DNA of 64,000 nt from Gammaproteobacteria bacterium (GTDB taxonomy: Bacteria; Pseudomonadota; Gammaproteobacteria; CBDBNL01; JAAOII01): the NCBI GenBank assembly GCA_965215225.1, contig OZ244039.1:2000864-2064863 (forward strand), in the 5' to 3' direction. The translations under genes were made by a program, and so were the position numbers. Each line of letters begins with the position of its first letter. Positions within the stretch are counted from its first letter, which is position 1. The notes under the pieces were generated by a model that had not been told where the DNA came from, made no database searches, and saw only the letters and a list, made by a program, of their open reading frames with translations. Shown piece after piece: positions 11,620-63,865 of this stretch.

Positions 11620-12528
11620 ATGAGAATTGCTTATCTAATAGTAGCACATGAACACCCAGAAAGACTAAGGACATTAGTTGAAGCCATTGAAGCGCCCTGG
11701 GCTGATATTTTTATCCATATAGACAAAAAAGAACCCCTAGCTCCTTACCAGGAGTGCTTAAAGGATAAGAATGTTCGTTTTATTGAGAACAGGATAAAGG
11801 GAAACTGGGCAGGCTGGTCTCTTGTCACAATTCACCTCAGACTACTCCAAACCGCCTATTCACCTGATTACAAATACTACAAGCTGCTCAGTAATAGTTG
11901 CTATCCGGTTAAAAGCAAATCCCATATTTACGATTTTCTTGCCAAGCACAATGAAAACTTTGTCTGCTATTGGAGCATTACCGGTAAAGGCAAAATAACA
12001 AGAGAAAGTGAGAATACAGTCAAGTATTATCACTTTATTGATACCATTAATATAGAAAACTTTCTTCGCCGAGAACGCTTTCGCTCCCACCCCATTAAGT
12101 ATTTTCTCCTCCATCCCATCCAAATTAGCTATTGGTCTTTGTTCTACTTGCTATTTCATTCAAAGAGACGTCACCTAATAAAGAGATTAATTCCGGTTAG
12201 AAGGTTTCCCCCTGGCTTGGAGATACACATAGCAGATGATTTTTGGTGCTTAAGAGGTTCTTTTGTTGCCTATTTATTAAAGTTCGTAAATGAGAATCCC
12301 GATACTATAAGATTCTTCAAATATATCCTATCCCCTGCTGAACACCTAGTTCCCTCTTTGTTAATCGCGGCTAAAATGCCCTATAACAGAACACCAATCC
12401 ATGCTAATATGATGTCAAAACCTTTGAATGCTGAAAAAATTCTGGAACTACTAGACAAACCGAATATACTATTTATCCGTAAAGTAAAGGATGCTCATCT
12501 CTCATTACTAAAAAACATCAACAAATAG
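11620..12528 (+). CDS. Glycosyltransferase, Branch/core-2-I-branching (GT14)-like, copy 1
   Basis: N-terminal MRIAYLIVAHEHPERLRTLVEAIEAPWADIFIHIDKK fits the Branch-domain pattern (AYLI.aH...p..l.rLl..l......ifIHiDkk). Bacterial Branch-family length of about 300 aa. Confidence 0.7.
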   Translation: MRIAYLIVAHEHPERLRTLVEAIEAPWADIFIHIDKKEPLAPYQECLKDKNVRFIENRIKGNWAGWSLVTIHLRLLQTAYSPDYKYYKLLSNSCYPVKSKSHIYDFLAKHNENFVCYWSITGKGKITRESENTVKYYHFIDTINIENFLRRERFRSHPIKYFLLHPIQISYWSLFYLLFHSKRRHLIKRLIPVRRFPPGLEIHIADDFWCLRGSFVAYLLKFVNENPDTIRFFKYILSPAEHLVPSLLIAAKMPYNRTPIHANMMSKPLNAEKILELLDKPNILFIRKVKDAHLSLLKNINK

Positions 12529-12545
12529 GTCGATAGTTTTTCATA

Positions 12546-13454
12546 ATGAGAGTCGCTTATCTAATAGTAGCCCATAATCACCCAGAAAGACTAAGAAGGC
12601 TAGTTGAGGCTATTGAAGCACCTTGGGCGGATATTTTTATCCATATAGATAAAAGAGAACCCCTAGCTCCCTACCAAGAGTGCTTAAAAGGGAAGGATGT
12701 TCGCTTTGTTGAGAACAGGATAAAGGGAAACTGGGCAGGTTGGTCTCTTGTCACAATTCACCTCAGGCTACTTCAAACTGCCTATTCACCTGATTACAAG
12801 TACTACAAACTACTTAGTAATAGTTGCTACCCGGTTAAAAATCAATCCTTCATTTACAACTTTTTTGCCAAACATAACGAAAACTTCGTCTGCTATTGGA
12901 GCATCAGCGAAAAAGACAGAATAACAAAAGAGAAGGCAAGCACAGTTAAGTATTACCATTTCATTGATGCTATTAATATAGAAAATTTCCTCCGCCCCGA
13001 ACGCTTTCGCTCTCATCCTATTAAATACTTTTTGCTCCATCCCATCCAAATTAGCTATTGGTCTTTGTTTTACTTGCTTGTCCATCCCCCCAAAAGACAC
13101 TTAATAAAGAAATTAATCCCGGTCAGAAAGCCCCCTCCCGGTTTAGAGATACACATAGCAGATGATTGGTGGTGCTTAAGAGGTCCTTTTGTTGCCTATC
13201 TATTAAATTTCATAAATGAGAATCCCGATACCATAAGATTTTTCAAATATATCAAAACTCCTTCTGAATACTTAATCCCCTCTTTGTTAGCCGGGTCTAA
13301 AATGCCTTACAACAGAACCCTAATCCATGCCAATATGATGTCAAATCCATTGAATGCTAACAAAATACTAGAACTATTAAACAACCCAGAGATGCTATTT
13401 ATCCGTAAAGTGAATGATGATTCCTTCGCGCTACTAAAAAATATCAACAAATAG
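12546..13454 (+). CDS. Glycosyltransferase, Branch/core-2-I-branching (GT14)-like, copy 2 (tandem paralogue)
   Basis: 302 aa and collinear with copy 1. By eye most positions are identical. Lies 17 nt downstream of copy 1. Confidence 0.7.
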   Translation: MRVAYLIVAHNHPERLRRLVEAIEAPWADIFIHIDKREPLAPYQECLKGKDVRFVENRIKGNWAGWSLVTIHLRLLQTAYSPDYKYYKLLSNSCYPVKNQSFIYNFFAKHNENFVCYWSISEKDRITKEKASTVKYYHFIDAINIENFLRPERFRSHPIKYFLLHPIQISYWSLFYLLVHPPKRHLIKKLIPVRKPPPGLEIHIADDWWCLRGPFVAYLLNFINENPDTIRFFKYIKTPSEYLIPSLLAGSKMPYNRTLIHANMMSNPLNANKILELLNNPEMLFIRKVNDDSFALLKNINK

Positions 13455-21282: not shown

Positions 21283-21404
21283 ATATCTGATTCCTTCATC
21301 AGACTATTCCTAGCGGGTAAGTTGATAATAAAGAGCCCGATTAAAAAGACAAGAAAATCTATAATAAAGTTAGGACCCTAAATTTTTATAAGCTTAACCA
21401 AATT

Positions 21405-22544
21405 ATGAAGAAAACTCTCCACATCTATAGATATGGTAAATATAGATATGGTAAACGGAATGTGCCCTATTTTGAGTCTTATTTTTTACCGGATTGGGAC
21501 ATTGTTTATAATTCGCCAACCCCTCATATAGTATTTTTTTCAAGTGAGGGGGCTCTATCCAAAATTCTTGATGCCCGTATAAAATTTGGCTGGAGGCCCT
21601 TATTGTGCATGCGTCACGGTGAAGCATGGCTACCATCAAGCCACTTAATAGACTATTCTTTTTCTTTTGCCCCAACAGATAGTAAAAATTCCTGTACTAG
21701 TGGAATCCCAGGAAGGATACGGAACTTATTTACACCTGATAAACTATCAGATGATAAAGCCTGCGATCCTAGCCCTAAAATCAGAAATAGCGGCTTTTCT
21801 TCTCCAAACGACTTCAATACAAAACATTCTTTATCAACCCGTACCAAAACAAACTTTTGTAACTTCATTTATAGTGCAACACGTTTCGATAGAGAAGTTC
21901 GCGAGGACTTCTGCAAACTCCTAATGGAATACAAAAAAGTGGATTGCCCAGGAGCAGTTCTTAATAATATGAAACGAATAAGAAAATGGCAAGACAAAGG
22001 CGGCGAGCAAGCAAAATTAAAATTTATCTCCTCTTACAAATTCACCATCGCCTTCGAAAATACTTCCACCGATTACTATATTACCGAGAAAATTTTTCAT
22101 CCTCTGATGGTAGGCAGCATACCTATCTATTGGGGCTGCCCCAAAATAGAAGAATATATCAACCCAAATGCTATTATCAACTGCCATAACTACAACTCCT
22201 TCAATGAGGTAATAGAAAGAGTAAAAGAAATAGACAATAACCCAGATTTATATCAACAATATATCAATGCAAAACCTGTCCTACCTAACTCTCGTTCCTA
22301 TCAAGTTGAAAAAGAATTAAAACAAAGAATCCAACATATCGCAACAGAAGCATTAGAAAGAGGTAGGCTGCCAAAAATAAACAAACTGGCAAACCTATGG
22401 AAACTCTCTTGCTTTATTTGGCAAAATAGAAACGCGCTTTTTATCGACTTTAATATACCACCAATGCTTCGCCAAAATACGAGGCGTCGAAAACTGATTC
22501 TTCTAGTTCGTGATATAAAAAGGGCAATTGCGCAAGGTGATTAG
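21405..22544 (+). CDS. Alpha-1,3/4-fucosyltransferase-like glycosyltransferase (GT10), copy 1
   Basis: GT10 core FCNFIYS ... KFTIAFENTSTDYYITEKIFHPLMVGSIPIYWG ... NPNAIINCHNYNSF. Basic amphipathic C-terminal tail. Confidence 0.85.
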   Translation: MKKTLHIYRYGKYRYGKRNVPYFESYFLPDWDIVYNSPTPHIVFFSSEGALSKILDARIKFGWRPLLCMRHGEAWLPSSHLIDYSFSFAPTDSKNSCTSGIPGRIRNLFTPDKLSDDKACDPSPKIRNSGFSSPNDFNTKHSLSTRTKTNFCNFIYSATRFDREVREDFCKLLMEYKKVDCPGAVLNNMKRIRKWQDKGGEQAKLKFISSYKFTIAFENTSTDYYITEKIFHPLMVGSIPIYWGCPKIEEYINPNAIINCHNYNSFNEVIERVKEIDNNPDLYQQYINAKPVLPNSRSYQVEKELKQRIQHIATEALERGRLPKINKLANLWKLSCFIWQNRNALFIDFNIPPMLRQNTRRRKLILLVRDIKRAIAQGD

Positions 22545-22679
22545 TTATCGTCATATATTCTAGGCATCCCTTCATCAGACTATTCCTAGCGGGTAAGTTG
22601 ATAATAAAGAGCCCGATTAAAAAGACAAGAAAATCTATAATAAAGTTAGGACCCTAAATTTTTATAAGCTTAACTAAAT

Positions 22680-23801
22680 ATGAAGAAAACTCTCCACATC
22701 TATAACCGTGGTAAATCAAGCACAAGAGAATTTGAGCCCCGTTTTTTACCAGACTGGGACATCATCTATAATTCATCAACCCCTCATATAGTATATTTGT
22801 TCGGCGATTCTGGATTAGGCAGCATTCTGAAAGCGCGTATAAAATTTGGTTGGAACCCCCTATTGTGTATGTATTACGGTGAACCAGGCCCATTAAGGTA
22901 TGGTCACCTGGTAGATTATTCCTTCTCCTTTGCCCTAACAGATAGTAAGAATTGCTGTATTAGTCAAATCCCAAGAGAGATACGGAACTTGCTTGCATCT
23001 GATAAAGACTACCATGTGGCCATAAAATCAGAAAATAGCAGCTCTTTTTCTCCAAACGACTTTAATACAAAACACTCTTTGTCAACCCGCGCCAAAACGA
23101 GCTTTTGCAATTTCGTTTATAGTAGAGAAATAGGCAATGACAGAAAACTTCGCCGCGACTTTTGCAAACTTCTAATGAAATACAAAAAAGTAGATTGCGC
23201 CGGAGCAACTCTTAATAATACAAACCGCCTAAGAAAATACGAGGAAAGAATGGCTCCCTACCAAGCAAAACTAAACTTCATCTCCTCTTACAAATTCACC
23301 ATCGCCTTTGAAAATGCTTCCAATGATTACTACATCAGTGAGAAAATCTTTCATCCTCTAATGGTAGGCAGTGTGCCTATTTATTGGGGCTGCCTTAAAA
23401 TAGAAGAATATATCAATCCAAATGCTATTATCAACTGCCTTAACTACAACTCTTTTAATGAGGTAATAGAAAAAGTAAAAGAAATAGACAATGACCCAGA
23501 TTTATATCAAGAATACATCAACGCAAAACCTGTCCTACCAGACTCTCGTTTCTATCAGGCTGAAAGAGAATTAAAGCAAAGAGTCCAACATATTGCAACC
23601 GAAGCATTAGAAAGACGAAGGACTGTAAGAATAAACAAATGGACAGGTCTATGGAAACTCTCTTCTTTTATTTGGCAAAATAGAAAGGCTCTTTTTACCG
23701 ACTATAAAAAAGCTCTGTTATCTCGCCAGAATAAGATGCGACAAAAATTGGTTCTTCTCGTTAGTAATATAAAAAACAGAACCAAGCCACATCAAACCTA
23801 A
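22680..23801 (+). CDS. Alpha-1,3/4-fucosyltransferase-like glycosyltransferase (GT10), copy 2 (tandem paralogue)
   Basis: Same GT10 core (KFTIAFENASNDYYISEKIFHPLMVGSVPIYWG). Preceded by an almost exact copy of the leader upstream of copy 1. Confidence 0.85.
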   Translation: MKKTLHIYNRGKSSTREFEPRFLPDWDIIYNSSTPHIVYLFGDSGLGSILKARIKFGWNPLLCMYYGEPGPLRYGHLVDYSFSFALTDSKNCCISQIPREIRNLLASDKDYHVAIKSENSSSFSPNDFNTKHSLSTRAKTSFCNFVYSREIGNDRKLRRDFCKLLMKYKKVDCAGATLNNTNRLRKYEERMAPYQAKLNFISSYKFTIAFENASNDYYISEKIFHPLMVGSVPIYWGCLKIEEYINPNAIINCLNYNSFNEVIEKVKEIDNDPDLYQEYINAKPVLPDSRFYQAERELKQRVQHIATEALERRRTVRINKWTGLWKLSSFIWQNRKALFTDYKKALLSRQNKMRQKLVLLVSNIKNRTKPHQT

Positions 23802-23841: not shown

Positions 23842-23974
23842 AAAATGCTTAGGCTGCAATCAACCGCTTCATCTATGCGGGGCTCCTGCTAAGACTAGCA
23901 AGAACTATTGCTGATATTGAACAAATTCAAACAACGCAGCTAAATGAAATGCTGATTATCGTCATATATTCTAA
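23842..23974 (+). pseudogene. Decayed duplicate of the last ~50 codons of comM
   Basis: Aligns by eye with comM 21125-21282 (for example ...ctattgctgatattgaaca...ttatcgtcatatattctaa) but carries indels. The first ~45 nt of the comM downstream spacer follow it. Confidence 0.75.
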
Positions 23975-24048
23975 ATATCTCATCCCTTTATCAGACTATT
24001 TCTAGTGAGCAGATTGATAATAAAGCCAACGGCTGATATAATAACCAA

Positions 24049-28097: not shown

Positions 28098-30836
28098 ATG
28101 AGTCACTATAATATCTTGTCTTTAGATGGCGGTGGTATTAAGGGGGTCATGACTACCCGCCTTCTTAGCTGGATGGAAAAGAGATTGCAACAGCTAGCCT
28201 CAGACCCAAATGCGCGGCTGCTAGACTTCTTTGATTTCTTTGTTGGCACCTCCACTGGCGGACTTATGCTAGCCTGCTATCTTATGCCTAGCAAAGATGG
28301 CAAGTCCTCTTTTTTCACCGCCCAAGGTGTAGAGGACCTCTATCTAGCCACCGGCGATGAAATCTTTTCGCTTAACATCTGGGAAAAAATTCTGCGTGGT
28401 CATGGGATGACTTCTGCTAAATACCCAGCTGCCAGCATCGAAAAGGTGCTGAATAAGCATTTTGGTGATATGAAATTAGACCAGTTGCTTAAGCCCTGTC
28501 TCATCACTTCTTATGATCTAAGTACCAACACTAGGCTATTTTTTCGCCAACACCGGGCGCAAAAACAACCAAAAAACAACTTCTATTTGCGCGACATCTG
28601 CCGCGCCACCACCAGCGCGCCCACCTACTTTCCGCCCGTATCAATTAAGAGCATGACTAAACAAGAGTATTTGTGCATAGACGGTGGTATCTTCGCCCAT
28701 AACCCATCTATTTTTGGATATGCTGAGTTAAGACGATTGGATAATGAAGCAGGCGCGCGCAATATGCTAATGTTTTCAATAGGGACAGGTGAGTTTCTCG
28801 ATAAATTTGATGAGAAAGAAGTAAAGAGTTGGGGCAAATTGGAATGGTATAGACCCTTAGTGGCTCTTATGTCTAATGGTCATACCGGAAATACCGATTT
28901 CCAAATGGAAATGATCTTCCGCGAACACAGTGATCACTATCTAAGAGTAGATCCAAACCTGACAAATAAGCAAACAAGTAGTTTAGATCTAGCAACAAAA
29001 GAAAATATTGACAATTTGCTTGCAGCAGCAGATAACTATATTACAGAAAATGAGGTAGAGCTTATGGACTTCATTGAAAGGCTATATAGAAGAAAACTTC
29101 AGCGCCCAAGCAGTGTCTTTGATAAGATAGCCGATATTTCCATTAGCCCTTTCTGGCGCCAAAGCTACCCACCTGAGGTGCCACATGCTATCAATCCAGA
29201 TGCCTATCCAAATATTCTTGCTATGATGGAAGAAGCCTGTTCAAAATATAGCAATCGCATCGCTTTGGAACAGTTCGGTCATTCTTTCACCTATGGTCAA
29301 TGTCATAAATATATTAACTATCTAGCTGCCTGGTTACAAACTGTTGCTGATATTCAACCAGGCGATCGGGTGGCAATCATGATGCCTAATTGTCCACAAT
29401 ATATCATTACTGCCTTTGCTGCCCTCAAAGTAGGTGGAGTAGTTGTTAATGTCAATCCTATATATACTACGCCAGAATTAGAGCACCTGCTTAAACAATC
29501 CGCGCCAAAAATTATAATTTGCTGGGATGGGGCTGCCCACATAGTTTCTGGCTGCTCGGCAGAATTAATTCCTAATCATCAACTCATTACCAGTCTAGGA
29601 GATATGCTCCCTGCATATAAAGGAACTTCCATCAATGTTCTATTAAGGGCGCGTGGCATGATCAAATCACATGGACGCCTCAGCCGGGTCACCAAATGGC
29701 TAAGGGCGCTCACTAGAGGAAGGCACTTAAATCTCTACCGCCCGATAGTCAAGAATGAAGACCTTGCTTTCCTCCAGTTCACTGGCGGCACCACTGGCGA
29801 CCCCAAAGCGGCTATGCTTACTCATCGTAATCTCATTGCCAATATGCTACAAGCAAAGGCTTGCCTTAGTGAAGAATTTCTTAGCCAGGATAAGGAACAG
29901 CGAGTTTCCATTACTGCCCTACCTCTTTACCATATATTCGCTCTCATGGCAAATGGGTTACTTTTCTTTCATCTAGGAATGAAGAATGTGCTAATAGCCA
30001 ATGCACGCGACATTGATACCTTAATAACGGTTATGAGCAAACATCCCTTTCATGGCTTTGCCGGTGTGAACACCTTATTTAAGGCGCTCCTTGCTCATCC
30101 TAAATTTTCTTCCATCAATTTTGACAAGCTGTTGTTGACTCTCGGTGGAGGCATGGCAGTACAAAAATCCGTTGCCGAAGAGTGGCACCAGATAACCGGT
30201 TGCCATCTTTCTCAAGCCTACGGGCTAACCGAGGCATCTCCCGCGGTTACAATCAATCCCTTTACTGTTGCTAAGTTCAATGGCAGTATTGGATTAGCCA
30301 TTCCCTCTACCGAAGTAGCCATAGTAGATGACAAATATAGTCCTTTGCCGATTGGAGAAGTAGGATTGCTTTTTGTTCGCGGCCCTCAAGTAATGGCAGG
30401 CTACTGGAAAAAAACAGACGCTACCAGCATGGACCTTAGTCTAGACGGCTGGCTAAATACCGGCGACCTTGCTTACATAGACCAAAAAGGATTTGTCTAT
30501 TTGGTGGATCGCGCTAAAGACATGATTATTGTATCTGGTTTCAATGTCTATCCCAATGAAGTAGAAGAGGTGGTAGATGCCCATCCTAAGGTAGTAGAGA
30601 GTGGCTGTATTGGGGTGCCAGACTCACAAAGTGGTGAGGCAGTAAAAGTATTTGTTGTTATCGAACCAGGCATGAGCTGTACCAAAGAAGAAATACTAGC
30701 ACATTGTAAAAAGTCTCTGACTGCTTACAAAATACCTGACCAGATAGAATTTGTAACCAGCCTGGCCAAGAGTCCAGTAGGAAAAATTCTCAGAAAGGAA
30801 CTTCATAAATTAGAACAAACTGGTAACAAATCATAG
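28098..30836 (+). CDS. Fusion protein: N-terminal patatin-like phospholipase + C-terminal long-chain-fatty-acid-CoA ligase (FadD-like)
   Basis: Patatin motifs LDGGGIKG, GTSTGG (GxSxG) and IDGGIFAHNP (DGG). From about aa 345 it is FadD-like: YPPEVPHAINPDAYPN, FTGGTTGDPKAAMLTHRNL, AYGLTEASP, TGDLAY, SPVGKILRKEL. One uninterrupted 912-aa ORF. Confidence 0.85.
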   Translation: MSHYNILSLDGGGIKGVMTTRLLSWMEKRLQQLASDPNARLLDFFDFFVGTSTGGLMLACYLMPSKDGKSSFFTAQGVEDLYLATGDEIFSLNIWEKILRGHGMTSAKYPAASIEKVLNKHFGDMKLDQLLKPCLITSYDLSTNTRLFFRQHRAQKQPKNNFYLRDICRATTSAPTYFPPVSIKSMTKQEYLCIDGGIFAHNPSIFGYAELRRLDNEAGARNMLMFSIGTGEFLDKFDEKEVKSWGKLEWYRPLVALMSNGHTGNTDFQMEMIFREHSDHYLRVDPNLTNKQTSSLDLATKENIDNLLAAADNYITENEVELMDFIERLYRRKLQRPSSVFDKIADISISPFWRQSYPPEVPHAINPDAYPNILAMMEEACSKYSNRIALEQFGHSFTYGQCHKYINYLAAWLQTVADIQPGDRVAIMMPNCPQYIITAFAALKVGGVVVNVNPIYTTPELEHLLKQSAPKIIICWDGAAHIVSGCSAELIPNHQLITSLGDMLPAYKGTSINVLLRARGMIKSHGRLSRVTKWLRALTRGRHLNLYRPIVKNEDLAFLQFTGGTTGDPKAAMLTHRNLIANMLQAKACLSEEFLSQDKEQRVSITALPLYHIFALMANGLLFFHLGMKNVLIANARDIDTLITVMSKHPFHGFAGVNTLFKALLAHPKFSSINFDKLLLTLGGGMAVQKSVAEEWHQITGCHLSQAYGLTEASPAVTINPFTVAKFNGSIGLAIPSTEVAIVDDKYSPLPIGEVGLLFVRGPQVMAGYWKKTDATSMDLSLDGWLNTGDLAYIDQKGFVYLVDRAKDMIIVSGFNVYPNEVEEVVDAHPKVVESGCIGVPDSQSGEAVKVFVVIEPGMSCTKEEILAHCKKSLTAYKIPDQIEFVTSLAKSPVGKILRKELHKLEQTGNKS

Positions 30837-38888: not shown

Positions 38889-39974
38889 CTATCTAAATAG
38901 AAAAGCCCTTCTTTTCTTACGTCTTACTTGAACTAAAAAATTAACAAGTGATCGTAAATATCTAGACACACCTAATCTTCTAACTATAGTAAGTAGAAGG
39001 TTCTTAATTTCTAAATCTAAATTTCTTGCCACTAAACCAATCAACCTAATCTTAGCTAGTAAATAGTCCTCCTTTTTGTTACGTCTTGCTAAAGCCTCTT
39101 CAACAATCAAAATACACCTCTCTCGAATTTTTCTTTCCATCAGATAAAGATGAGAGCTAGGAAGAATAGGCCGAGCTTGTCGATAAGATTCATATAGATC
39201 AGGATCCGTATCTATTTCTCTAACTTTATCTACCACATCAGCAAAAGAATCATAATCATGGCAATTTATAAAAGCCGCTGGATTAAAAAAGTTTGCTATC
39301 TTAGGATTCCCCCAGTAAATTGGAACAGTTCCCGCTAGGAAAGCATGGAAAATCTTTTCAGTTAGGTAATAATCTGATGAAGTATTTTCAAAACATATGG
39401 TGAATTTACATTCTGCTATAAAGTTTAGTTTGTCATTTTGGCCAATAGATTTTATACGCGGCATATTATTTAAACTGTATCCAGGACAATCTACTTTTTT
39501 ATATTTAGACAAGAGTTTACAAAAATCCCTTCTTACCCAGGTATCCTTCTTTTCATTTCTATAAATAAAATTGCAAAATCGGGTTTTCCTGACCCTTCCC
39601 CACTTCCTCATATCTTCATCCTCCTTATTCATTAACATACCGCGTACTTTGAAGTTTGCCAAATGAAATATCCAAAAACAGTTCTTCTTACTGTCGCGAC
39701 TGTAACCAAACGAATAATCTACGCCTGAAAGGACGTTGTGTTTTTCGCCTGAAGACAAACATAGGATCGGTCGCCAGCCAAACAAAAAACGTATTCGTAA
39801 TATCTTGCGATAATTCCGCCATAGGCTCCCGGGACCCGTTATATAATTCATCCATAAAATATCAGGAGAATGATCGCCTCGCTGAAATCTATAGGGCTCC
39901 CCTTTTAGAGCATCATCTAAGAAATAGCTGCTCTTCTTATCACCACACACATAAATTTCCTTTCTATTAGACAT
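38889..39974 (-). CDS. Alpha-1,3/4-fucosyltransferase-like glycosyltransferase (GT10), divergent copy 3
   Basis: FCNFIYRN ... KFTICFENTSSDYYLTEKIFHAFLAGTVPIYWG ... NPAAFINCHDYDSF. Strongly basic C-terminal tail. Confidence 0.85.
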   Translation of the reverse strand: MSNRKEIYVCGDKKSSYFLDDALKGEPYRFQRGDHSPDILWMNYITGPGSLWRNYRKILRIRFLFGWRPILCLSSGEKHNVLSGVDYSFGYSRDSKKNCFWIFHLANFKVRGMLMNKEDEDMRKWGRVRKTRFCNFIYRNEKKDTWVRRDFCKLLSKYKKVDCPGYSLNNMPRIKSIGQNDKLNFIAECKFTICFENTSSDYYLTEKIFHAFLAGTVPIYWGNPKIANFFNPAAFINCHDYDSFADVVDKVREIDTDPDLYESYRQARPILPSSHLYLMERKIRERCILIVEEALARRNKKEDYLLAKIRLIGLVARNLDLEIKNLLLTIVRRLGVSRYLRSLVNFLVQVRRKKRRAFLFR

Positions 39975-42405: not shown

Positions 42406-42434
42406 ATATGATAGAGAAAAATCATTTCATAATA

Positions 42435-44833: not shown

Positions 44834-44838
44834 TTGAC

Positions 44839-45360
44839 TTAAAAGATATTCTTTAATTTGTTTACTTTTTCTTTAATGGAGTAGTTGAATGATTCATTGT
44901 CCAAGTCAATCACAACCCCTGCCTTCAAATCACGAACCACCTTCTCCTTCAACAAGATCTTCTTGCCACTAAGATGAGATAGGTAGCCTATTAGTTTGTG
45001 CCTTTCCCCTTCTTCTAAGGGGAAAGCAGTTTGAACCTGGGCAATCAGTTCATTTTCCTTCTTTAGTTTCATCTCCTCAAAGAGATTGGCAATCGTAGGT
45101 AAAAAAGCTATTCGCCCATTAGCTAGCAATAGTTGAAGAAAATTACTCTGTTGATCATTAGCTGGCTCACTCAATAGGTTAAACAATAGAGATATCTTAT
45201 TTTTCCGGCTGACAGTAGGATTCATAAGATGCTGGGCTAGTCTTTGTTCCTTTAAGCTAGTTGCCAAAGAAAATAGAAAGTGAGCCCACGAGCCGATTTC
45301 TCCTAGCTCTTCGGCAAGTTGAAAAGCAGCCCGAGCATAGGGTCGCGCAATGGTTTCCAT
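44839..45360 (-). CDS. atpH: ATP synthase F1 subunit delta
   Basis: [10 protein letters not shown] start, 173 aa, positioned between atpF and atpA. Confidence 0.88.
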
Positions 45361-45362
45361 AT

Positions 45363-46171
<809 letters not shown>

Positions 46172-46257
46172 CTATTATAAAAGCAATCGTTCAATATAGT
46201 CATAAATAATTTGATAATCTTTGATTTTGAATGAAAAAAATCTAAATTAAGGTCTGT

Positions 46258-47097
<840 letters not shown>

Positions 47098-47163
47098 TTA
47101 CAATTAGTTATAAATGAATTAATTTTATCCATTTTGGGCAGCTATACCAAGAAAAATTCAAAG

Positions 47164-47538
47164 TTAATGCATAAAAAACACATTAACAATACTATGTAAT
47201 AAATGCATAGAGACAATGCCGCTTATTAAACCTAAGGGATGGACTTGCTCTACATAATAAAGTAGCAGTGAGCTGATAACAATAACTATGCCAAATTTTA
47301 TTGCCATCCCCCATCCTAGGGCAGCAAGCATTTTGGGTGCCTCCGCTGAACCCCGATAGAGAAAGTAATAGCCTCCTTGGGCCAAATGAGCAAAACCATG
47401 AATTAGCCCTCCAACCAGAAGCCATAGCCCAAGCGCCCAGCCAAACCCTAAGCCCACTAGCCAAGAAAAGACAGCCCATATACCAACTAGATAGAGGGTA
47501 ATATTGAAGAGACGAATTTGATTAGCGGAAAGACGCAT
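47164..47538 (-). CDS. atpI: ATP synthase protein I
   Basis: 124-aa protein with 4 TM helices, immediately upstream of atpB. Confidence 0.7.
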   Translation of the reverse strand: MRLSANQIRLFNITLYLVGIWAVFSWLVGLGFGWALGLWLLVGGLIHGFAHLAQGGYYFLYRGSAEAPKMLAALGWGMAIKFGIVIVISSLLLYYVEQVHPLGLISGIVSMHLLHSIVNVFFMH

Positions 47539-47684: not shown

Positions 47685-49070
47685 ATGAAACAAAAAGTAA
47701 AGATTCAAACCTATCATCCATTATACTTGCCTAAGGGTATAGAAAGAGAGATTCCTTCTGATGCTGGCGAACTGAGTGAACATCGAAAGCAATCCTACGA
47801 TTACAAAACCCTGTTCTATGATATATTCTTTCAATCCAATCGACTAGTCTGTATAGGACCTCCTTTCTTAAATATTGGAACTCCCCTAGCCATCAGGTAC
47901 AAGCATAAAGGGAAAAACATTAGGGCAGCATGGGATAGATACCCCAAAAAAGGTGCTATCAGGTTTACCATGATATATATTGACATTAGCCCCAAGAATG
48001 CGCCTTTAGAGTTAGAATTCATATTCAAGGATTTCACCACTAAAATAACAGTCTCACGTCCAAATACTATTCCTCTATCCAAAGTAGACCTCTCTTTAGT
48101 CACTGTGCAAAAAGACAATCCATTAATATGGATAAAAGACTTTTGTATCTGGCATACAAGAGCACATGGTATCAAAAGGATAGTTTTATACGATAATGGC
48201 AGCAGCTATTTTTCTGATTTAAGTAAATACCTAACTGAACTAAACGAAGAGTTCGAACTTGTCCTAGTTCATTGGCCCTTTCCTTTTGGATTATTAGAAG
48301 CAAAAAATGATTCATACCAGGATTGGTTTAGAATGGGGGCGCTCAATCACTTTCATTCCTTTTTCGGCGAGAATACTACCTGGGTCATTTCCTTAGATAT
48401 TGACGAATTTGTTTATTGCAATAGCCCCTTACCATTATTTTTATCCCTCCCCAAAGCGCTCGGACAACCAGAATGGCTTCTTAAGCAGCGTAGATTCCCT
48501 GCTCCCTTCTTCTTTAGGGACCAAAAAGATTTGGACCAAATCCGTTTCTACCATCACCAGATAAGAAAAAAACAGTATCCTCCAGTGTATCCTAAATACA
48601 TCTGCCAACCTCGGTTAGTCAAATCAATGGGTATTCATACCAGCCAACGTTCTCTGAAACTAATTGCCAAAGCCATCTTCCAGTCACACCCCTATGTTTC
48701 GATAAGATTAATAGAATACTTATTAAGTGTGGTATTTGGAAAGGCATTCGGAAAGATAAGAAGAGCTATTGGACGGCTAATTAAGATTGGAAGAAAAGAA
48801 CAGCTGAATCCAAGACAGAAGAAAATGCCTTGGCCTGACCACTTTCCAGATGAAAAGAATATCTCATTAGTTCTTTATCACTTTCTTGGTCTCTATACTG
48901 GTTGGCGTGATCCTAATCATTCAAATAAGATCAAAAAACCTAAAAGTCATCTTCAGCTATATCCAGCCGAGGAACTCGTCCTAGATAAACGGATAGTGGA
49001 TAAGGCTATTGAGATAGGAATGGTGACTGAAGCTGAGATTCCATCTATGGACGAGTCTATACTTACATAG
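47685..49070 (+). CDS. GT92/DUF23-like (Glyco_tranf_2_4-like) glycosyltransferase, divergent family member
   Basis: Shares the family layout with 59662-63865: N-terminal Y.PLYLPKGIEREI...LFYDIFF...CIGPPFLNIG, then WIKDFCIWHTRAHGIKRIVLYDNGS, LVHWPFPFG and the DxD-type motif SLDIDEFVY. Confidence 0.65.
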   Translation: MKQKVKIQTYHPLYLPKGIEREIPSDAGELSEHRKQSYDYKTLFYDIFFQSNRLVCIGPPFLNIGTPLAIRYKHKGKNIRAAWDRYPKKGAIRFTMIYIDISPKNAPLELEFIFKDFTTKITVSRPNTIPLSKVDLSLVTVQKDNPLIWIKDFCIWHTRAHGIKRIVLYDNGSSYFSDLSKYLTELNEEFELVLVHWPFPFGLLEAKNDSYQDWFRMGALNHFHSFFGENTTWVISLDIDEFVYCNSPLPLFLSLPKALGQPEWLLKQRRFPAPFFFRDQKDLDQIRFYHHQIRKKQYPPVYPKYICQPRLVKSMGIHTSQRSLKLIAKAIFQSHPYVSIRLIEYLLSVVFGKAFGKIRRAIGRLIKIGRKEQLNPRQKKMPWPDHFPDEKNISLVLYHFLGLYTGWRDPNHSNKIKKPKSHLQLYPAEELVLDKRIVDKAIEIGMVTEAEIPSMDESILT

Positions 49071-49328: not shown

Positions 49329-50393
49329 TTATTGGCATTGCTGATAAGTATGGCTTTGCATTTCTTTTAATCTACTGAGAGTCCGTCCTTTCTCACCCCC
49401 TTCCTTCCCAGTATAGAGTTGATGCAAAGGGGCAGCCGCACTGAGTATCAGGTTGGTCTTGTTATCATACAAAATATCAATCAACCAGGTGAATCGCCTT
49501 GCTGCATCATCATTATCAGCTAGCTGTGGCACATCCGATAAGAACAGGGTGCTAAAACGCTCGGCTAATCTTAAGTAGTCCAAATGCGAATAGGCTCCTT
49601 GACACAGGGTATTGAAGCTGAACCAAACTGCATCAGAGCTTCTTTGGACAGCTTCTATCCTCCTTCCTTGGACTATCACCTTAGGCTCTAGCCATATTCC
49701 ACAAGCTAACCGAGCAAAAGATGTTTCCATAGATTTTTGGGTTTGTTGATTAAGAGGATAAAAATACAGCCCATCCTTGCTAAGTTGCAGTTGGCGATAA
49801 TCTTGATAACCACAGAGGTTAAAAACCCGGCAATTCTCCTCTAATAGGTCGATCGTAGGCAAAAAGAGATGGCGTGCTAAACCATTTGGGTAAAGATCGG
49901 CAGGTGAATAATTAGATGTCATAACAAATTTCATTCCATACCGAAACAATTGACGCAAAAGCGCTCCAAGTATCATTGCATCTGCTATATCCGATATATG
50001 AAATTCATCAAAACATATCAGGCGATACTTCTTACTGAGATTGGCCGCTATGGTACTGATCTTATCCTCTTTGTTGATGTCACCCATCTGACTCATCTCC
50101 TGATGAAAGTGGCGCATAAACGAATGAAAATGAACACGCCACTTTTGGGTTATGGAGGTGTTCAAGTAAAAACCATCCATCAATAATGTCTTCCCCTGTC
50201 CTACACTTCCATAGATATAGACCCCCTTAGGCACATTCGGTTTGAACAGCCTTGTTATATTCTTTATATAGGCATTCTCATTGTTAAACTGCTGCAGCAA
50301 GAGCGCTGCCTTCTTTTGTCCTTGATCTTCTAATAGCTGATTGGAGGATCGCAAACCCTCATACCAATCAAGAATCTTCCCTTCGCCCCTCAC
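49329..50393 (-). CDS. zapE: Cell division protein ZapE (AFG1-like ATPase)
   Basis: Walker A GSVGQGKTLLMD, Walker B LICFDEFHISD, AFG1-family length. GTG start overlaps the upstream GT2 stop (GTGA). Confidence 0.85.
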   Translation of the reverse strand: MRGEGKILDWYEGLRSSNQLLEDQGQKKAALLLQQFNNENAYIKNITRLFKPNVPKGVYIYGSVGQGKTLLMDGFYLNTSITQKWRVHFHSFMRHFHQEMSQMGDINKEDKISTIAANLSKKYRLICFDEFHISDIADAMILGALLRQLFRYGMKFVMTSNYSPADLYPNGLARHLFLPTIDLLEENCRVFNLCGYQDYRQLQLSKDGLYFYPLNQQTQKSMETSFARLACGIWLEPKVIVQGRRIEAVQRSSDAVWFSFNTLCQGAYSHLDYLRLAERFSTLFLSDVPQLADNDDAARRFTWLIDILYDNKTNLILSAAAPLHQLYTGKEGGEKGRTLSRLKEMQSHTYQQCQ

Positions 50394-51364
50394 TTAGCTA
50401 CCCGAGTATAGAAGAGTCGCAAGTAGATCCTGGTTAGAAATAGCAAAATTTTGATAATGCGAACAACATTTTGCCCTCTATAAGAAGACCTAAGCATGCG
50501 CAAGCTATATTTCAATGCTCTATGATAATAATCCCTTGCATTATCTATTCTGTCACTTTTATCTGCATTGCGAGCAGCCCCATACCATAAAGAAGTTATG
50601 ATGGCAAGAAAAACAGGTTTGTTTTTATCGTCTGTCGATAGTAAGTCATTGACAACATGCTCACGCACCCTAGCCCAATCAGCAAAACGATTCCAATAGG
50701 CCTCTGATAGATTGGCTGCTTCTTCAGTTTCAGATTGATCTCTATACATAAGAGAGGGGCTACCTTCAAGAATTTGCCAGATCCCACGAAGATATATACG
50801 GACAAACAAGGTTAAGTCATGACCACTAACTATATGCTCATCAAATCCACTGGCAGATCTAACCGTCTCCAATCGGAACAAGGAACAAGAAGCAATTCCA
50901 GCGCCGCGCTGAAACATCCATAGGATAGGGTTTTTATCAAACTCCTTCATATCATTGAAGATAATGTCTTTCCCTCTAAATATAACTCGGGGAATTGAAA
51001 CTGCAACCGTCTTTTCTTCTTTGGCTAAGATTGGAACTGTGCGGGCAAAAAAATCTGGTGGGATCTCGTCATCTGAATCCAGAAAGAGGACTGAAGCGCA
51101 ACCCTTAGCTGCTTCTATTCCCCTATTGCGCGCCGCGGCTGCACCACTATGCTTCGCCCTTATTAGCTTTTTAGTAAATGAAGTCTTGGTCGTCTCACAC
51201 CAGTGTTCAATTTTGGCTGCGGTCTCATCGGTAGAACCATCGTCTACAATAACCAGATGATCAGGCGGGTGGGTTTGTTTTATCAGACTTGCCAGAGCAC
51301 GAAAAACACTAATCGGTCTATTATAGACAGGGATGATAACGGCGATTGGGAAAGTAGAGGACAA
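50390..51364 (-). CDS. Glycosyltransferase family 2
   Basis: VIIPVYNRPISVFRALASLIKQT, VIVDDGSTDET, AAARNRGIEAA, LFLDSDDEI (DxD). Confidence 0.85.
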   Translation of the reverse strand: MSSTFPIAVIIPVYNRPISVFRALASLIKQTHPPDHLVIVDDGSTDETAAKIEHWCETTKTSFTKKLIRAKHSGAAAARNRGIEAAKGCASVLFLDSDDEIPPDFFARTVPILAKEEKTVAVSIPRVIFRGKDIIFNDMKEFDKNPILWMFQRGAGIASCSLFRLETVRSASGFDEHIVSGHDLTLFVRIYLRGIWQILEGSPSLMYRDQSETEEAANLSEAYWNRFADWARVREHVVNDLLSTDDKNKPVFLAIITSLWYGAARNADKSDRIDNARDYYHRALKYSLRMLRSSYRGQNVVRIIKILLFLTRIYLRLFYTRVAK

Positions 51365-59661: not shown

Positions 59662-60888
59662 CTATAGGGATTCTTCCAACAACCCTTTATTTCTTGCCAT
59701 ATCCCTAAGCCGAGTGTCAAGAACATTATTCCCCTCATAATTTCTTCTATATTTCTTATATTTCCAAAGTGTATTTAAGTTGCTAAGATGATAGAAAAAT
59801 ACAGTTCTCTGCCTCCCTACTCTTATTACCTTTATCCCAAAATAAGAACCAAGCCTTACAACAAGCCTCCCTGCTTGTCTCCAATAAAAATTAAGGTCCC
59901 CATAATGCAAACGGTGCCGCCAAAGAGCCTTCGAACGACATATGAATTTGTGCCCAAACCAAGAAAGCTCTGGTGGTCTTTCAGTATGGTCAAAAAATCT
60001 TGACAATCTCTTGTCATGACAATTAGCATCCATAACTCCAACAGGATGCATAATATAATTGGGTAAGTAGGTAATCGGGAAAACCTTGAATTTTAAGTAA
60101 TCTATAAGGGGTTTCTCACCTTCCACATAGAGATATTCATCCAAATCCAAAAATGTAAACCATCGGGTTCTTTTAGCACAAAACAACAAATGGCAATGAT
60201 TCACACCGCCTTCTTGACTATATTGATTATCATGAGATCTTGTAGGACCAAAAGGAAAGGACCAATGGACTAAGAGAATCTCAATGTCCTCATCCAGTTG
60301 AGAAAGACTGTGTTTTAATGCCATGAAATTCTTACTTCCGTTATCATAAATGACTATTCTCTTAACATCATGCACCCTTCGATGCCATCTACACCAATCT
60401 TGAATCCATAAGATTGGGTAGTCTTTTTGCATAGTAGCTAAGGTTAACTTAGTTTTTTCCATTGGCATAATTGGTTGCCTAAAGTAAGAGACGGTTAAGT
60501 TGAAATGGGTAAATCTAAACCTCAAAGTCAGCTTATTATCTTGAATAGAAAAAGGAATTTTTATACGAATAATAAATAATTTGATAATTGCATGCCCTTT
60601 CCGCATTTTTGTTATTGAGAATTTAAGCGGCCTATCCAAACAACTAATACTTAGAGGGTCTCCTAAATTCAATAAAGGCGGCCCTATACAAACAAGATGC
60701 CTTTCATTGTCGGTAAGGAACATATCATAAAAAAGAGTCTTAGAATCATATTGTTGCCTCTTTTCCCGTTCCGTTAACTCACCGTCACCCATATCTACCC
60801 TATGAGATCGAATATTTCTTTGAATCTTATCAGGGAGAAGGACAGGTTGTGGAAAGTAAGAAGAAATCCTTACCCTATGACTAACCAC
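59662..60888 (-). CDS. GT92/DUF23-like glycosyltransferase, tandem copy A
   Basis: 408 aa, GTG start. WIQDWCRWHRRVHDVKRIVIYDNGS, LVHWSFPFG, FLDLDEYLYV. Ends ...RNKGLLEESL. Confidence 0.7.
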   Translation of the reverse strand: MVSHRVRISSYFPQPVLLPDKIQRNIRSHRVDMGDGELTEREKRQQYDSKTLFYDMFLTDNERHLVCIGPPLLNLGDPLSISCLDRPLKFSITKMRKGHAIIKLFIIRIKIPFSIQDNKLTLRFRFTHFNLTVSYFRQPIMPMEKTKLTLATMQKDYPILWIQDWCRWHRRVHDVKRIVIYDNGSKNFMALKHSLSQLDEDIEILLVHWSFPFGPTRSHDNQYSQEGGVNHCHLLFCAKRTRWFTFLDLDEYLYVEGEKPLIDYLKFKVFPITYLPNYIMHPVGVMDANCHDKRLSRFFDHTERPPELSWFGHKFICRSKALWRHRLHYGDLNFYWRQAGRLVVRLGSYFGIKVIRVGRQRTVFFYHLSNLNTLWKYKKYRRNYEGNNVLDTRLRDMARNKGLLEESL

Positions 60889-61195: not shown

Positions 61196-62422
61196 CTATA
61201 GGGATTCTTCCAACAACCCCTTGTTTCTCGCCATATCCCTAAGCCGAGTGTCAAGAACATTATTTCCTTCATAATGTCTTCCATATTCCTTAATTTTCCA
61301 AAGTGTATTTAAGTTGCTGAGATGATAGAAAAATACAGTTCTCTGCCCCCTTAGTGTTCTTGTCTTCATCCCAAAATAAGAACCAAGCCTTACAACAAGC
61401 TTCTCAACTTGTCTCCAATAAAATGTAACAACCCCCCAATGCAGACAATGCAATAAAAGTCCCTCTGGGCGGCATATGAATTTGGGCGTAGACCAAGAAA
61501 GCCTTGGTGGTCTTTCAATATGGTCAAAAAATCTTAACAATACCTTTTCATAACGATTAGCATCCATAACTCCAGTAGGATAGATCATATAATGAGGGAA
61601 GTCAATAATCGGGAAAACCTTAAATTTCAAGTAATCTATAAGGGATTTCTCACCCTCCACATAGAGATATTCATCCAAGTCCAAAAACGTAAACCATCTA
61701 GTTCTTCTAGGACAAAACAACAAGTGGCAATGATTTACACCGCCTTCCTGGGTATATCTATTATCGGGAGATCTTATAAGACCATAAGGAAAGGGCCAAT
61801 GAACTAAGAGAATCTCAATGTCCTCCTCCAGTTGAGAAAGACTGTGTTTTAATGCTATGAAATTCTTGCTTCCGTTATCATAAATGACCATTCTCTTAAT
61901 AGCATGCACTCTTCTATACCATCTACACCAATCTTGAATCCATAAAATCGGGTAGTCCTTTTGCATAGTAGCTAAGGTTATCTCAGCTTTTTGTACTGGA
62001 AGAGTTGGTTGCTTAAAGTAAGAGACAGTTAAGTTGAAATGGGTGAATCTAAACTTCAAAGTCAATTTATTATTTTGAACAGAAAAAGGGATCTTTATAC
62101 GAACAATAAATAATTTCATCATTGAATGCCCTTTCCGCAGTTTTGTTATTGAAAATTTAAGCGGCCTATCCGAACAACTAATACTTAGAGGGTCTCCTAA
62201 ATTCAATAAAGGCGGGCCTATACAAACAAGATAATTTTTATTGTCGGTAAGGAACATATCAAAAAAAAGAGTTTTGAAATCATATTGTTGTCTCTTCTCC
62301 CGTTCCGTTAACTCGCCGTCGCCTATAGCTGCCCTATGAGATCGAAGCTTTCTTTGAACCTTATCAGGGAGAATGACAGGTTGTGGAAAGTAAGAAGAAA
62401 TTCTTGCCCTATGACTAGCCAC
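61196..62422 (-). CDS. GT92/DUF23-like glycosyltransferase, tandem copy B
   Basis: 408 aa, collinear with copy A and mostly identical by eye. GTG start. Confidence 0.7.
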   Translation of the reverse strand: MASHRARISSYFPQPVILPDKVQRKLRSHRAAIGDGELTEREKRQQYDFKTLFFDMFLTDNKNYLVCIGPPLLNLGDPLSISCSDRPLKFSITKLRKGHSMMKLFIVRIKIPFSVQNNKLTLKFRFTHFNLTVSYFKQPTLPVQKAEITLATMQKDYPILWIQDWCRWYRRVHAIKRMVIYDNGSKNFIALKHSLSQLEEDIEILLVHWPFPYGLIRSPDNRYTQEGGVNHCHLLFCPRRTRWFTFLDLDEYLYVEGEKSLIDYLKFKVFPIIDFPHYMIYPTGVMDANRYEKVLLRFFDHIERPPRLSWSTPKFICRPEGLLLHCLHWGVVTFYWRQVEKLVVRLGSYFGMKTRTLRGQRTVFFYHLSNLNTLWKIKEYGRHYEGNNVLDTRLRDMARNKGLLEESL

Positions 62423-62596
62423 TAATATGTAAAGTTCTTTATATGCTGAGTGCTAAAATCAGTCTTTGCCTTGCCAAAGAACCACAACTTTTTATATCCA
62501 TACGACCCTTGAACAAAAGCAGCATCAGAAGAACATGGTTCTTTAATTAAAGCAGACTTAAATATTCATCTGAACAGAATAGTAACTATAGAGATT

Positions 62597-63865
62597 CTAT
62601 AGAGACTCTTCTAACAACCCCTTGTTTCTTGCCATATCCCTAAGTCGAGTGTCAAGAACATTATCCAGCACAGGAACAGCCTTTTTCTTTGGATCTGTTC
62701 CACTTTTTTGTTTATGATATCTTCTATATTCCCTATCCTTAAATCGCCAAAGCGTGCTTAAACTTTTAAGATGATAGAAAAACACAGTTCTTTGGTTCCT
62801 TATTCTTATTACCTTTATCCCAAAATAAGAATTAAGCCTCACAACAAGCTTCTCGACCTGTCTCCAATAAAAATTAAGAATCACAAAATGTAAATAATGC
62901 AGCCAAACACCCTTCGGGCAGCATATGTATTTTATCGAGCTCCAAGAAAGCTCTGGTGGTCTTTCAACATGGTCAAAAAATCTTGACAACTTCTTTTCAT
63001 AACGATTAGCATTCATGACTCCAATAGAAGGCATAACATAACTGGGTAAGTCAATAATAGGAAAAACCTTAAATTTTAAGTAATCCATAAGGGGCTTCTC
63101 GTCCTCCACATAGAGATATTCATCCAAATCCAAAAATGTAAGCCATCTAGTTCTTCTAGGACAAAACAACAAGTGGCAATGATTCTCACTGCCTATTTGA
63201 CTATATTGATTATGATAAGATCTTACAGTGCCAAAAGGAAAGGGCCAATGGACTAAAATAATCTCAATGTCCTCCAGCTGAGAAAGACTATGTTTTAATG
63301 CTATGAAATTCTTACTACCGTTATCATAAATGACTATCCTCTTAATAGCATGCACCCTCCTATACCATCTACACCAATCTTGAATCCATAAGATTGGGTT
63401 ATCTTTTTGCAAAGTAGCTAAGGTTAACTCAGTTTTTTCCATTGGAAGAGTTGGTCGCCTAAAGTAAGAGACGGTTAAGCTGAAACGGACGAATCTAAAT
63501 TTCAAAGTCAGTTTATTATTTCGAATAGAAAGAGGGATTTTTATACGAATAATAACTAATTTCATAGTCGAAGCCCCTTGCCGCAGTTTTGTGATTGAAA
63601 ATTTAAGCAGCCTATCTGAACAACTAATACTTAGAGGATCTCCTAAATTCAATAAAGGCGGGCCTATACAAACAAGATATTTCTTATTGTCGGTAAGGAA
63701 CATATCATAAAAAAGAGTCTTAAAATCATATTGTTGTCTCTTTTCCCGTTCCGTTAACTCGCTGCCTATAATCATCTGACGAGTTCGCATGTCCCTTTGA
63801 ACTTTATCAGGGAGAATGACAGATTGTGGGAAATAAGAAGAAATTCTTACCTTATAACCAGCCAT
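62597..63865 (-). CDS. GT92/DUF23-like glycosyltransferase, tandem copy C
   Basis: 422 aa, collinear with copies A and B, with a 14-aa basic insertion near the C-terminus (KQKSGTDPKKKAVP). ATG start. Confidence 0.7.
   Translation of the reverse strand: MAGYKVRISSYFPQSVILPDKVQRDMRTRQMIIGSELTEREKRQQYDFKTLFYDMFLTDNKKYLVCIGPPLLNLGDPLSISCSDRLLKFSITKLRQGASTMKLVIIRIKIPLSIRNNKLTLKFRFVRFSLTVSYFRRPTLPMEKTELTLATLQKDNPILWIQDWCRWYRRVHAIKRIVIYDNGSKNFIALKHSLSQLEDIEIILVHWPFPFGTVRSYHNQYSQIGSENHCHLLFCPRRTRWLTFLDLDEYLYVEDEKPLMDYLKFKVFPIIDLPSYVMPSIGVMNANRYEKKLSRFFDHVERPPELSWSSIKYICCPKGVWLHYLHFVILNFYWRQVEKLVVRLNSYFGIKVIRIRNQRTVFFYHLKSLSTLWRFKDREYRRYHKQKSGTDPKKKAVPVLDNVLDTRLRDMARNKGLLEESL

Follow-up and report, generated by a model that had tools for sequence, protein, structure and literature searches.

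The window analyzed here, a 64,000-nucleotide stretch of the 2,317,988-bp contig OZ244039.1 from the ~2.3 Mb genome of an uncultured, deep-branching gammaproteobacterium, encodes ten intact glycosyltransferases scattered among housekeeping genes, and two of the families represented recur in related uncultured genomes as tandem arrays. Our favored reading, to which we assign a probability of roughly one in two, is that the ten are cytoplasmic, membrane-peripheral Leloir enzymes that decorate a lipid-linked surface glycan, with paralogues that diversify acceptor specificity. The genes are named Br1 and Br2 (GT14), F1 to F3 (GT10), G1 to G4 (GT92-like), and GT2; they and two leader regions are located as follows (aa, amino acids).

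11620..12528, + strand: Br1, GT14/Branch-family protein, 302 aa (Pfam PF02485, E 1.1e-17)
12546..13454, + strand: Br2, tandem GT14/Branch paralogue (Pfam PF02485, E 1.8e-17)
21283..21404, + strand: F1 upstream junction and leader (alignment, sliding-window identity)
21405..22544, + strand: F1, GT10 alpha-1,3/4-fucosyltransferase-like protein, 379 aa (Pfam PF00852, E 3.7e-21)
22545..22679, + strand: F2 upstream junction and leader, boundary of the duplicated unit (alignment, sliding-window identity)
22680..23801, + strand: F2, tandem GT10 paralogue, 373 aa (Pfam PF00852, E 5.5e-19)
38889..39974, - strand: F3, solitary GT10 paralogue between bepA and fadE, 361 aa (PF00852, E 6.1e-21)
47685..49070, + strand: G1, GT92-like two-domain protein between atpI and tRNA-Val/Asp, 461 aa (PF01697, E 7.3e-11)
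50390..51364, - strand: GT2-family glycosyltransferase, 324 aa (Pfam PF00535, E 5.7e-28)
59662..60888, - strand: G2, GT92-like protein, first copy of the array after the YHS gene, 408 aa (Pfam PF01697)
61196..62422, - strand: G3, GT92-like protein, the copy modeled, 408 aa (PF01697; AlphaFold2 [AF2] model)
62597..63865, - strand: G4, GT92-like protein, 422 aa (PF01697, marginal)

An earlier note on this DNA had proposed these ten genes from the letters alone, and all ten were found in the list of open reading frames (ORFs) at exactly the coordinates it gave. Its family calls (GT14, GT10, GT92, and GT2) also hold, with every protein above the curated gathering cut-off of its Pfam model (23.9 bits for PF00852, 23.4 for PF02485, 23 for PF01697, and 23.3 for PF00535), for a tally of two GT14/Branch, three GT10, four GT92, and one GT2 protein.

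The GT10 proteins score 69–76 bits against PF00852. F1 and F2 are 67% identical (dS 0.59), and F3 shares 39–43% identity with the two. Their nearest known counterparts are the Helicobacter pylori fucosyltransferases FutA and FutB, which belong to the same CAZy family. An H. pylori alpha-1,3-fucosyltransferase is the best PDB match of F1 by sequence (2nzw, E 1e-15), in an alignment that runs across the FEN...YxTEK and IPIYWG motifs and sets KFTIAFENTSTDYYITEK of F1 against the FxxxFEN...YxTEK motif of the H. pylori enzyme. The fold gives the same answer: for an AF2 model of F1 built from 47 homologues (pLDDT 87), the top Foldseek match is H. pylori FucT (2nzx, E 1.7e-17, TM 0.59/0.64), with mango FUT13, human FUT9, and Arabidopsis FUT11 ranked below it. 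The GT-B fold of the model superimposes on solved GT10 structures, and the top 18 structural matches are all GT10 enzymes (18/18). Residues E73, R166, E218, Y225, E228, and K229 are kept in 14 of 14 GT10 copies and show little or no variation across the 47 homologues; among them are the presumed equivalents of H. pylori E95, R195, E249, and K250. Profile, fold (for F1), motif, and the proposed catalytic-base glutamate thus argue for GT10 membership of F1–F3, with transfer of fucose from GDP-fucose as the predicted reaction.

The H. pylori and window enzymes also share a basic, helical C-terminal tail and the lack of an N-terminal anchor. A basic amphipathic tail had been claimed for all three window GT10 proteins. 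The last 50 residues are indeed basic in each (net +7 to +11, with F3 at +11), and they are helical in the F1 model, but an amphipathic character is seen in F1 and F3 (hydrophobic moment 0.64–0.67, with F3 at 0.67) and not in F2 (0.29). The window genes also differ from those of H. pylori. Identity to its FucT is only about 20–23%, the window genes have neither the poly-C tracts nor the heptad-repeat region for phase variation, and the GT10 copies are in tandem (up to six in relatives) in an uncultured gammaproteobacterium with no known host.

The GT92-like proteins G1–G4 score 42.6, 30.0, 35.4, and 24.3 bits against PF01697, respectively (E 7e-11 to 3e-5). All four also match Glyco_tranf_2_4, and G4, which is marginal on PF01697 (24.3 bits vs the cut-off of 23), scores higher on that model. 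G1 is about 34% identical to the others, and G2–G4 are 71–78% identical to each other (dS 0.25–0.35). A search of the PDB with the G3 sequence gave no match. The AF2 model of G3, from a 37-sequence alignment (pLDDT 86.9, pTM 0.90), has an N-terminal beta-sandwich followed by a GT-A domain, and its top Foldseek match is poplar GalS1 (8d3z), the only solved GT92 structure, which has the same two modules and aligns over the full length (E 3.4e-14, TM 0.55 over 444 columns). The next matches are generic GT-A folds about seven orders of magnitude weaker. GalS1, the poplar/Arabidopsis beta-1,4-galactan synthase (8D3Z), combines a CBM95 module with a GT92 GT-A domain that uses a histidine base (PMC11062476). 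The family alignment of the G proteins shows a comparable DxD(E) motif and invariant histidines: YDNGS, H231, D248-x-D250-E251, and K314 are invariant and H328 is nearly so.

In contrast to GalS1, the G proteins have no type-II membrane anchor or stem and are predicted to be cytoplasmic. Their family is a bacterial one that carries the annotation ‘hypothetical protein’; a family profile retrieves 977 representative clusters at E<=1e-30, almost all full-length. Identity to GalS1 is 12%, a level from which the donor and linkage of G1–G4 are not reliably inferable. Bauldia, Humibacter, and Arthrobacter supply the distant named members of the family, likewise annotated ‘hypothetical protein’; the plasmid-borne matches, a Streptomyces ‘CapZ’ and an Alloyangia hypothetical protein, are very distant. 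G2–G4 form a tandem array with periods of 1534 and ~1446 nucleotides (nt), conserved spacers included. The array probably extends past the end of the window: the last 135 nt (63866–64000) resemble the spacer between G3 and G2, and the contig also carries a fourth close paralogue (P0135, 415 aa).

Related genomes carry larger arrays. ValS of the metagenomic relatives is 95, 86, 76, 71, 69, 61, and 58% identical to that of the window, and among the matches listed no named organism exceeds 56% (various free-living Gammaproteobacteria, with 53–56% for Oceanicoccus, Halioglobus, and Sulfurivirga). Among the matches listed from GTDB species genomes, none is above 54%. As an aside, ValS in two distant relatives (P0196 and P0198) is fused to a long TPR-repeat region, giving proteins of 1581–1588 aa. 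Several GT10-bearing relatives are represented by contigs of 1.66–2.3 Mb, two of which (L085 and L087) have names ending in ‘_c’ and are presumably circular. L085 has an array of three GT10 genes between housekeeping genes, and L087 has six between pckA and ygjP, two genes away from the same patatin-fadD/fadA/fadB/fxsA block that follows F1 and F2 in the window. An array of seven GT92-like genes is present in L089, and L090 and L091 have two such genes each. Identity matrices show that the copies cluster strictly by genome, at 69–95% identity within an array and 28–50% between genomes, a pattern that would fit either independent expansion in each lineage or gene conversion that homogenizes each array. 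The searchable literature yielded no description of GT10, GT92, or GT14 arrays in such bacteria. What appears to be new is the single-family tandem array of up to seven intact copies, recurring across an uncultured clade; the enzymes themselves are new members of known families. A TnpB/Cas12f-like gene was also observed in L085 (18151–18876), about 6 kb from the array of three GT10 genes.

The copies are intact and under purifying selection. All ten window ORFs and 20 of 20 array ORFs translated from L085, L087, L089, L090, and L001 are uninterrupted, and the conserved residues are retained in each of the 18 F and G copies among them that were aligned (18/18). Between paralogues, dN/dS is 0.15–0.44 (0.31–0.44 for the F and G genes, and 0.39–0.44 within the G2–G4 array), compared with 0.06–0.19 for housekeeping genes. 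With these ratios, and with the presumed catalytic residues kept in all F and G copies, the ten genes are probably functional. In L091 a +1 frameshift interrupts both GT92-like copies (10001–11228 and 11399–12644), each time at one T-run in the RFFDH codons, where the run is T7, vs T6 in all three window copies G2–G4; the frameshifts could mark a slippage site, but they look more like systematic long-read homopolymer errors. One might argue from these frameshifts, and from F and G ratios above those of housekeeping genes, that the extra copies are redundant or decaying products of neutral amplification with no distinct function. Given the intact ORFs, the retained residues, dN/dS well below 1, and the error-like appearance of the L091 frameshifts, we regard this as very improbable.

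The duplication scars described in the earlier note are real, and include a motif at the F1/F2/fxsA junctions, the G2–G4 period, and a 15-bp tandem repeat in F1 (21426–21455). The junction motif, TTATCGTCATATATTC, is repeated upstream of F1, F2, and fxsA (the fxsA copy at about 23950–24040). Over ~110 nt the leaders of F1 and F2 are 98–100% identical, and the coding regions are 65–90% identical; the sister genome has different leaders at both genes. The pattern points to recent gene conversion, strong constraint, or a conserved regulatory element. An Rfam scan of the window found only three tRNAs and no riboswitch in the conserved leader, and promoter and terminator scans gave counts no higher than in shuffled controls. 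Divergence among the GT10 paralogues is greater in the N-terminal (acceptor) domain and the tail than in the donor domain. The same domain stands out between genomes: F2 and its orthologue in the sister genome are 78% identical in the N-terminal (acceptor) domain and 93–95% elsewhere, and the flanking genes are 97–99% identical.

Br1 and Br2 score 64–65 bits against PF02485, with a hit that spans model positions 1–208 of 250. They are 82% identical to each other (dS 0.69, dN/dS 0.15), and the Br1 orthologue in the sister genome is 98% identical. Read from the sequence, Br2 begins 17 nt after Br1 and ends 17 nt before guaB; because of these short spacers on both sides, Br2 is probably co-transcribed with Br1 and guaB. 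The pair resembles the animal GT14 enzymes, core-2/I-branching GlcNAc-transferase (C2GnT) and xylosyltransferase 1 (XT1), in its Branch profile and in weak PDB sequence matches of Br1 (XT1 E 3e-6, the best; C2GnT E 0.007). For the catalytic glutamate of GT14 enzymes, and for the C-terminal basic residues that stand in for a DxD/metal site, the candidate counterparts are SPAEH of Br1, whose alignment with LPAES of XT1 is confined to a weak second HMMER stretch (i-E 11), and the C-terminal FIRKV, which resembles the GT14 ‘ARKF’ motif. The Br proteins differ from the animal enzymes in their length of 302 aa, in having no stem or transmembrane (TM) segment, and in the position of the pair directly upstream of guaB. 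Bacterial proteins annotated ‘beta-1,6-N-acetylglucosaminyltransferase’ belong to the same Branch family, and identity to plasmid-borne bacterial homologues is 21–26%, with weaker similarity to the animal enzymes; we know of no characterized bacterial GT14 enzyme. Paracoccus, Shinella, Hymenobacter, and Rhizobium have distant Branch homologues, which lie, where annotated, in O-antigen or exopolysaccharide (EPS) loci; those of Hymenobacter and Shinella adjoin rfbABCD and genes for a flippase, an initiating sugar transferase, and an O-antigen ligase. A rhodanese-domain protein gene (9917–10450, + strand) lies 1.2 kb from the Branch pair; its best NCBIfam match is ‘rhoda_near_glyco’ (115 bits, below the cut-off of 145).

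The GT2 protein scores 98 bits against PF00535, and all of its NCBIfam matches fall below equivalog cut-offs. The gene has host-like GC, and the protein ends in a hydrophobic, basic, amphipathic tail. GT2 overlaps the start of zapE by 4 nt (49329–51364, - strand), which suggests translational coupling with a cell-division gene. In the relatives with 69–71% identical ValS, the zapE-GT2 pair is not beside leuC.

None of the ten proteins has a signal peptide or TM helix, as previously noted; our hydropathy scan agrees, with a maximum 19-residue Kyte-Doolittle mean of no more than 1.3 except for 1.66 in the C-terminal tail of GT2. All ten are very basic (net +8 to +31). Together with the basic C-terminal tails of the GT10 and GT2 proteins, these features make a cytoplasmic, membrane-peripheral location likely.

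The housekeeping frame, identified by NCBIfam, Pfam, and synteny with a relative, accounts for all other genes of the window. From the left, the order is smc, mutS, rlmE, ftsH, ampD, Br1, Br2, guaB, amtB-glnK ... hemF, comM, F1, F2; through the middle, fxsA, fadBA, patatin-fadD, pstCAB, phoU, fadE, F3, bepA, tRNA-Arg ... atpGAHFEBI, G1; and to the right, tRNA-Val, tRNA-Asp, zapE, GT2, leuC, valS, cca, mdh, Na/Ca-exchanger, YHS, G2, G3, G4. The glycosyltransferase genes thus stand singly or in tandem between housekeeping genes, as the earlier note said, and its flanking pairs (ampD/guaB, comM/fxsA, fadE/bepA, atpI/tRNA-Val-Asp, and zapE/leuC) were recovered. It had also remarked on the lack of export and precursor genes, and we found no wzx, wzy, wzz, waaL, ABC glycan exporter, initiating transferase, or sugar-nucleotide gene among the ORFs of the window. 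Neither the window nor the flanks of the relatives' arrays contain a conventional O-antigen or capsule cluster, whether Wzx/Wzy- or ABC-dependent.

The earlier note took this layout as a sign of something other than a normal O-antigen locus, but it is not evidence against a role in lipopolysaccharide (LPS): the LPS genes of H. pylori, including the GT10 genes futA and futB, have a similarly ‘scattered organisation’, dispersed between housekeeping genes and apart from those for export (PMC6892558). The window layout is a variant of that arrangement.

The lack of nearby export genes, with enzymes that are all soluble or peripheral, would also suit a product that stays off the surface, for example glycolipids, small molecules that carry sugars, or oligosaccharides of the cytoplasm or periplasm. 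Lipid-metabolism neighbors (fadBA, fadE, and patatin-FadD) point the same way, though the relatives' arrays are not consistently found beside such genes. However, the characterized GT10, GT14, and GT92 members known to us act on glycoconjugate glycans, the CBM-like domain suggests a polymeric acceptor, and lineage-specific diversification is more typical of surface structures, so that a non-surface product seems unlikely.

A somewhat better, if still doubtful, alternative is that the enzymes glycosylate the cell's own proteins (pili, flagellin, adhesins, an S-layer, or targets of general O-glycosylation) and not LPS or capsule. XT1, the best PDB sequence match of Br1, acts on core proteins, all ten enzymes appear cytoplasmic, and no polysaccharide genes lie nearby. 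GT10 itself is reported to include protein O-fucosyltransferases, FUT10 and FUT11 (PMC11949838). On the other hand, the enzyme nearest to F1 by both sequence and fold, H. pylori FucT, acts on oligosaccharides, the CBM-like domain of the G family resembles that of the polysaccharide-acting GalS1, and no candidate target or oligosaccharyltransferase gene adjoins any of the arrays.

We favor decoration of a lipid-linked glycan at the cytoplasmic face of the inner membrane, where the ten enzymes would associate peripherally. The acceptor would be a lipid-linked cell-surface glycan (an LPS O-chain, the outer core of lipooligosaccharide [LOS], or capsule or EPS) that is modified before export. GT10 enzymes would add fucose from GDP-fucose; in the GT92-like enzymes the CBM-like N-terminal domain would hold the glycan acceptor while a beta-linked galactose-type sugar is added; a branching sugar would come from the GT14 pair and a further sugar from GT2. 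Genes for precursors, a flippase, and a ligase would be expected at other places in the 2.3-Mb genome. The lineage-specific sets of paralogues would arise by tandem duplication, with later divergence concentrated in the acceptor-binding domain, and would broaden or diversify the glycan structure, presumably in response to phages, grazers, or hosts.

Several points weigh against this proposal. No acceptor, precursor, flippase, or ligase gene was found in the window or in the array flanks examined, and the link to LPS or capsule is drawn only by analogy. The Branch homologues whose neighborhoods suggest such an association are just 23–25% identical to the window pair. Arrays of six or seven enzymes of nearly identical family exceed what known LPS pathways use. 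Finally, the glycosyltransferase genes and their surroundings show no simple-sequence repeats like those behind phase variation of LOS genes in H. pylori or Neisseria. The sole tract within those of the window is an A8 run inside G3, with no poly-C or poly-G run of at least 7 in or near any of them, and the relatives' arrays have just (AT)5-6, (GA)5, and isolated C7 or G7 runs. Phase variation by simple repeats is thus not supported.

The lgtABCDE LOS locus of Neisseria offers a second comparison, as a set of tandem paralogous glycosyltransferases outside a classical O-antigen cluster that builds a variable outer core. Its enzymes are of the GT2, GT25, and GT8 families and its genes carry poly-G tracts for phase variation, whereas the arrays described here are of a single family, reach seven copies in relatives, and lack poly-G tracts.

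As to origin, the families had been called eukaryote-typical, a description that does not fit these members. The closest homologues found are on contigs of bacterial size, and every supplied source name is bacterial; the fold of F1 is nearer to the H. pylori enzyme than to plant or human GT10s; the GT92-like family is a bacterial one of about 1,000 clusters; and the distant Branch homologues lie in ordinary O-antigen or EPS loci of free-living bacteria. By these sequence comparisons, the window genes are therefore best placed as bacterial branches of families better known from eukaryotes, and not as recent imports from them.

The further suggestion that the genes were acquired and recently amplified survives in part. 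Accessory insertion is supported: the relatives with 69–71% identical ValS keep leuC-valS-cca-mdh-Na/Ca-exchanger-YHS and have neither GT2 nor the G trio there, and a closer relative, L091, has two G copies at exactly the site of the trio, so that copy number at this site is 0, 2, or at least 3 across relatives. Recent amplification is not, with paralogues 67–82% identical (dS 0.25–0.69) and the same Br and F1/F2 pairs in the same places in the sister genome L001 (housekeeping dS 0.04–0.15). Recent horizontal transfer was also rejected on composition. Third-position GC of the glycosyltransferase genes (0.357) is within the housekeeping range (0.379 +/- 0.029), their low GC arises at codon positions 1 and 2, and the GC of the relatives' arrays follows that of each host, from 36% to 49%.

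These results bear on the roles that the earlier note had proposed, namely translocated effectors (for example, of type IV secretion) that act on host targets, or mimicry of host Lewis or N-acetyllactosamine (LacNAc) glycans. Genomes of the lineage are small (1.66–2.3 Mb), paralogue expansion is common among effectors, and basic amphipathic tails could equally target host membranes; GT10, GT92, and GT14 enzymes could in principle make fucosylated, branched LacNAc-type structures. Yet no secretion-system, ankyrin, or host-interaction gene is present in the window or in about 150 kb of flanking sequence from relatives, and the Pfam scan of the ten revealed no similarity to GT88/Lgt-type effector enzymes. 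The closest homologues are bacterial and not eukaryotic, and the synonymous-site composition of the arrays is host-like. Other window genes include biosynthetic and respiratory functions (leuC, hemF, atp, and fad genes) as well as amtB and pstSCAB-type transport, and retention of leuC, hemF, fad, amtB, and the pst-type genes suggests autonomous metabolism. Either of these host-directed roles seems improbable to us.

We raise only tentatively, as an idea that is more likely wrong than right, that a clade with small genomes (1.7–2.3 Mb) has repeatedly and independently amplified GT10 and CBM-plus-GT92 families into arrays of 2–7 intact paralogues outside polysaccharide loci, as a dedicated glycan-diversification system. 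Its products would be fucosylated and galactosylated epitopes of Lewis/LacNAc type, similar to those of eukaryotes, and might serve in encounters with a eukaryotic host or predator. If the analogy with the characterized enzymes is true, the arrays would amount to a natural library of GT10 and GT92-type enzymes, dozens of close relatives whose differences lie mainly in the acceptor-binding domain. Such a library would help to understand and engineer the acceptor specificity of fucosylation and galactosylation. The GT92-like family would then be, to our knowledge, the first described bacterial counterpart of the plant CBM95-GT92 galactan synthases, and parallel lineage-specific expansion in streamlined genomes would imply strong, recurrent selection on surface-glycan diversity. 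If the ten are instead ordinary LPS-decorating enzymes, the window would be a well-documented but unremarkable case of the scattered layout of the H. pylori kind.

Other features of the window are recorded here as separate observations. Between a glucose/sorbosone-dehydrogenase gene and the rhodanese-domain gene lies a 777-bp array of a degenerate heptamer, AGATGRR (9138–9914; about 115 copies, 70% match), in which no C was seen on the + strand by reading. It yields spurious ORFs of 277 and 286 aa at 9101–9984 (- strand) and a strong skew spike. The array is absent from the relatives' loci examined, none of which covers the equivalent site.

Directly after fadBA, a 912-aa fusion (28098–30836, + strand) joins an N-terminal patatin-like phospholipase domain to a full-length long-chain fatty-acid-CoA ligase (FadD), and the fusion is conserved in relatives (L001 16666–19401 and L087 14723–17443). 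The ATP synthase operon (41497–47538, - strand) reads atpI-B-E-F-H-A-G. Since atpD and atpC do not follow atpG, the genes for the beta and epsilon subunits must lie elsewhere; atpG is followed by 4.5 copies of the repeat CCTCTTTT (42366–42400) and then by a gene resembling those for 3-hydroxyisobutyrate or tartronate-semialdehyde reductase (41497–42366).

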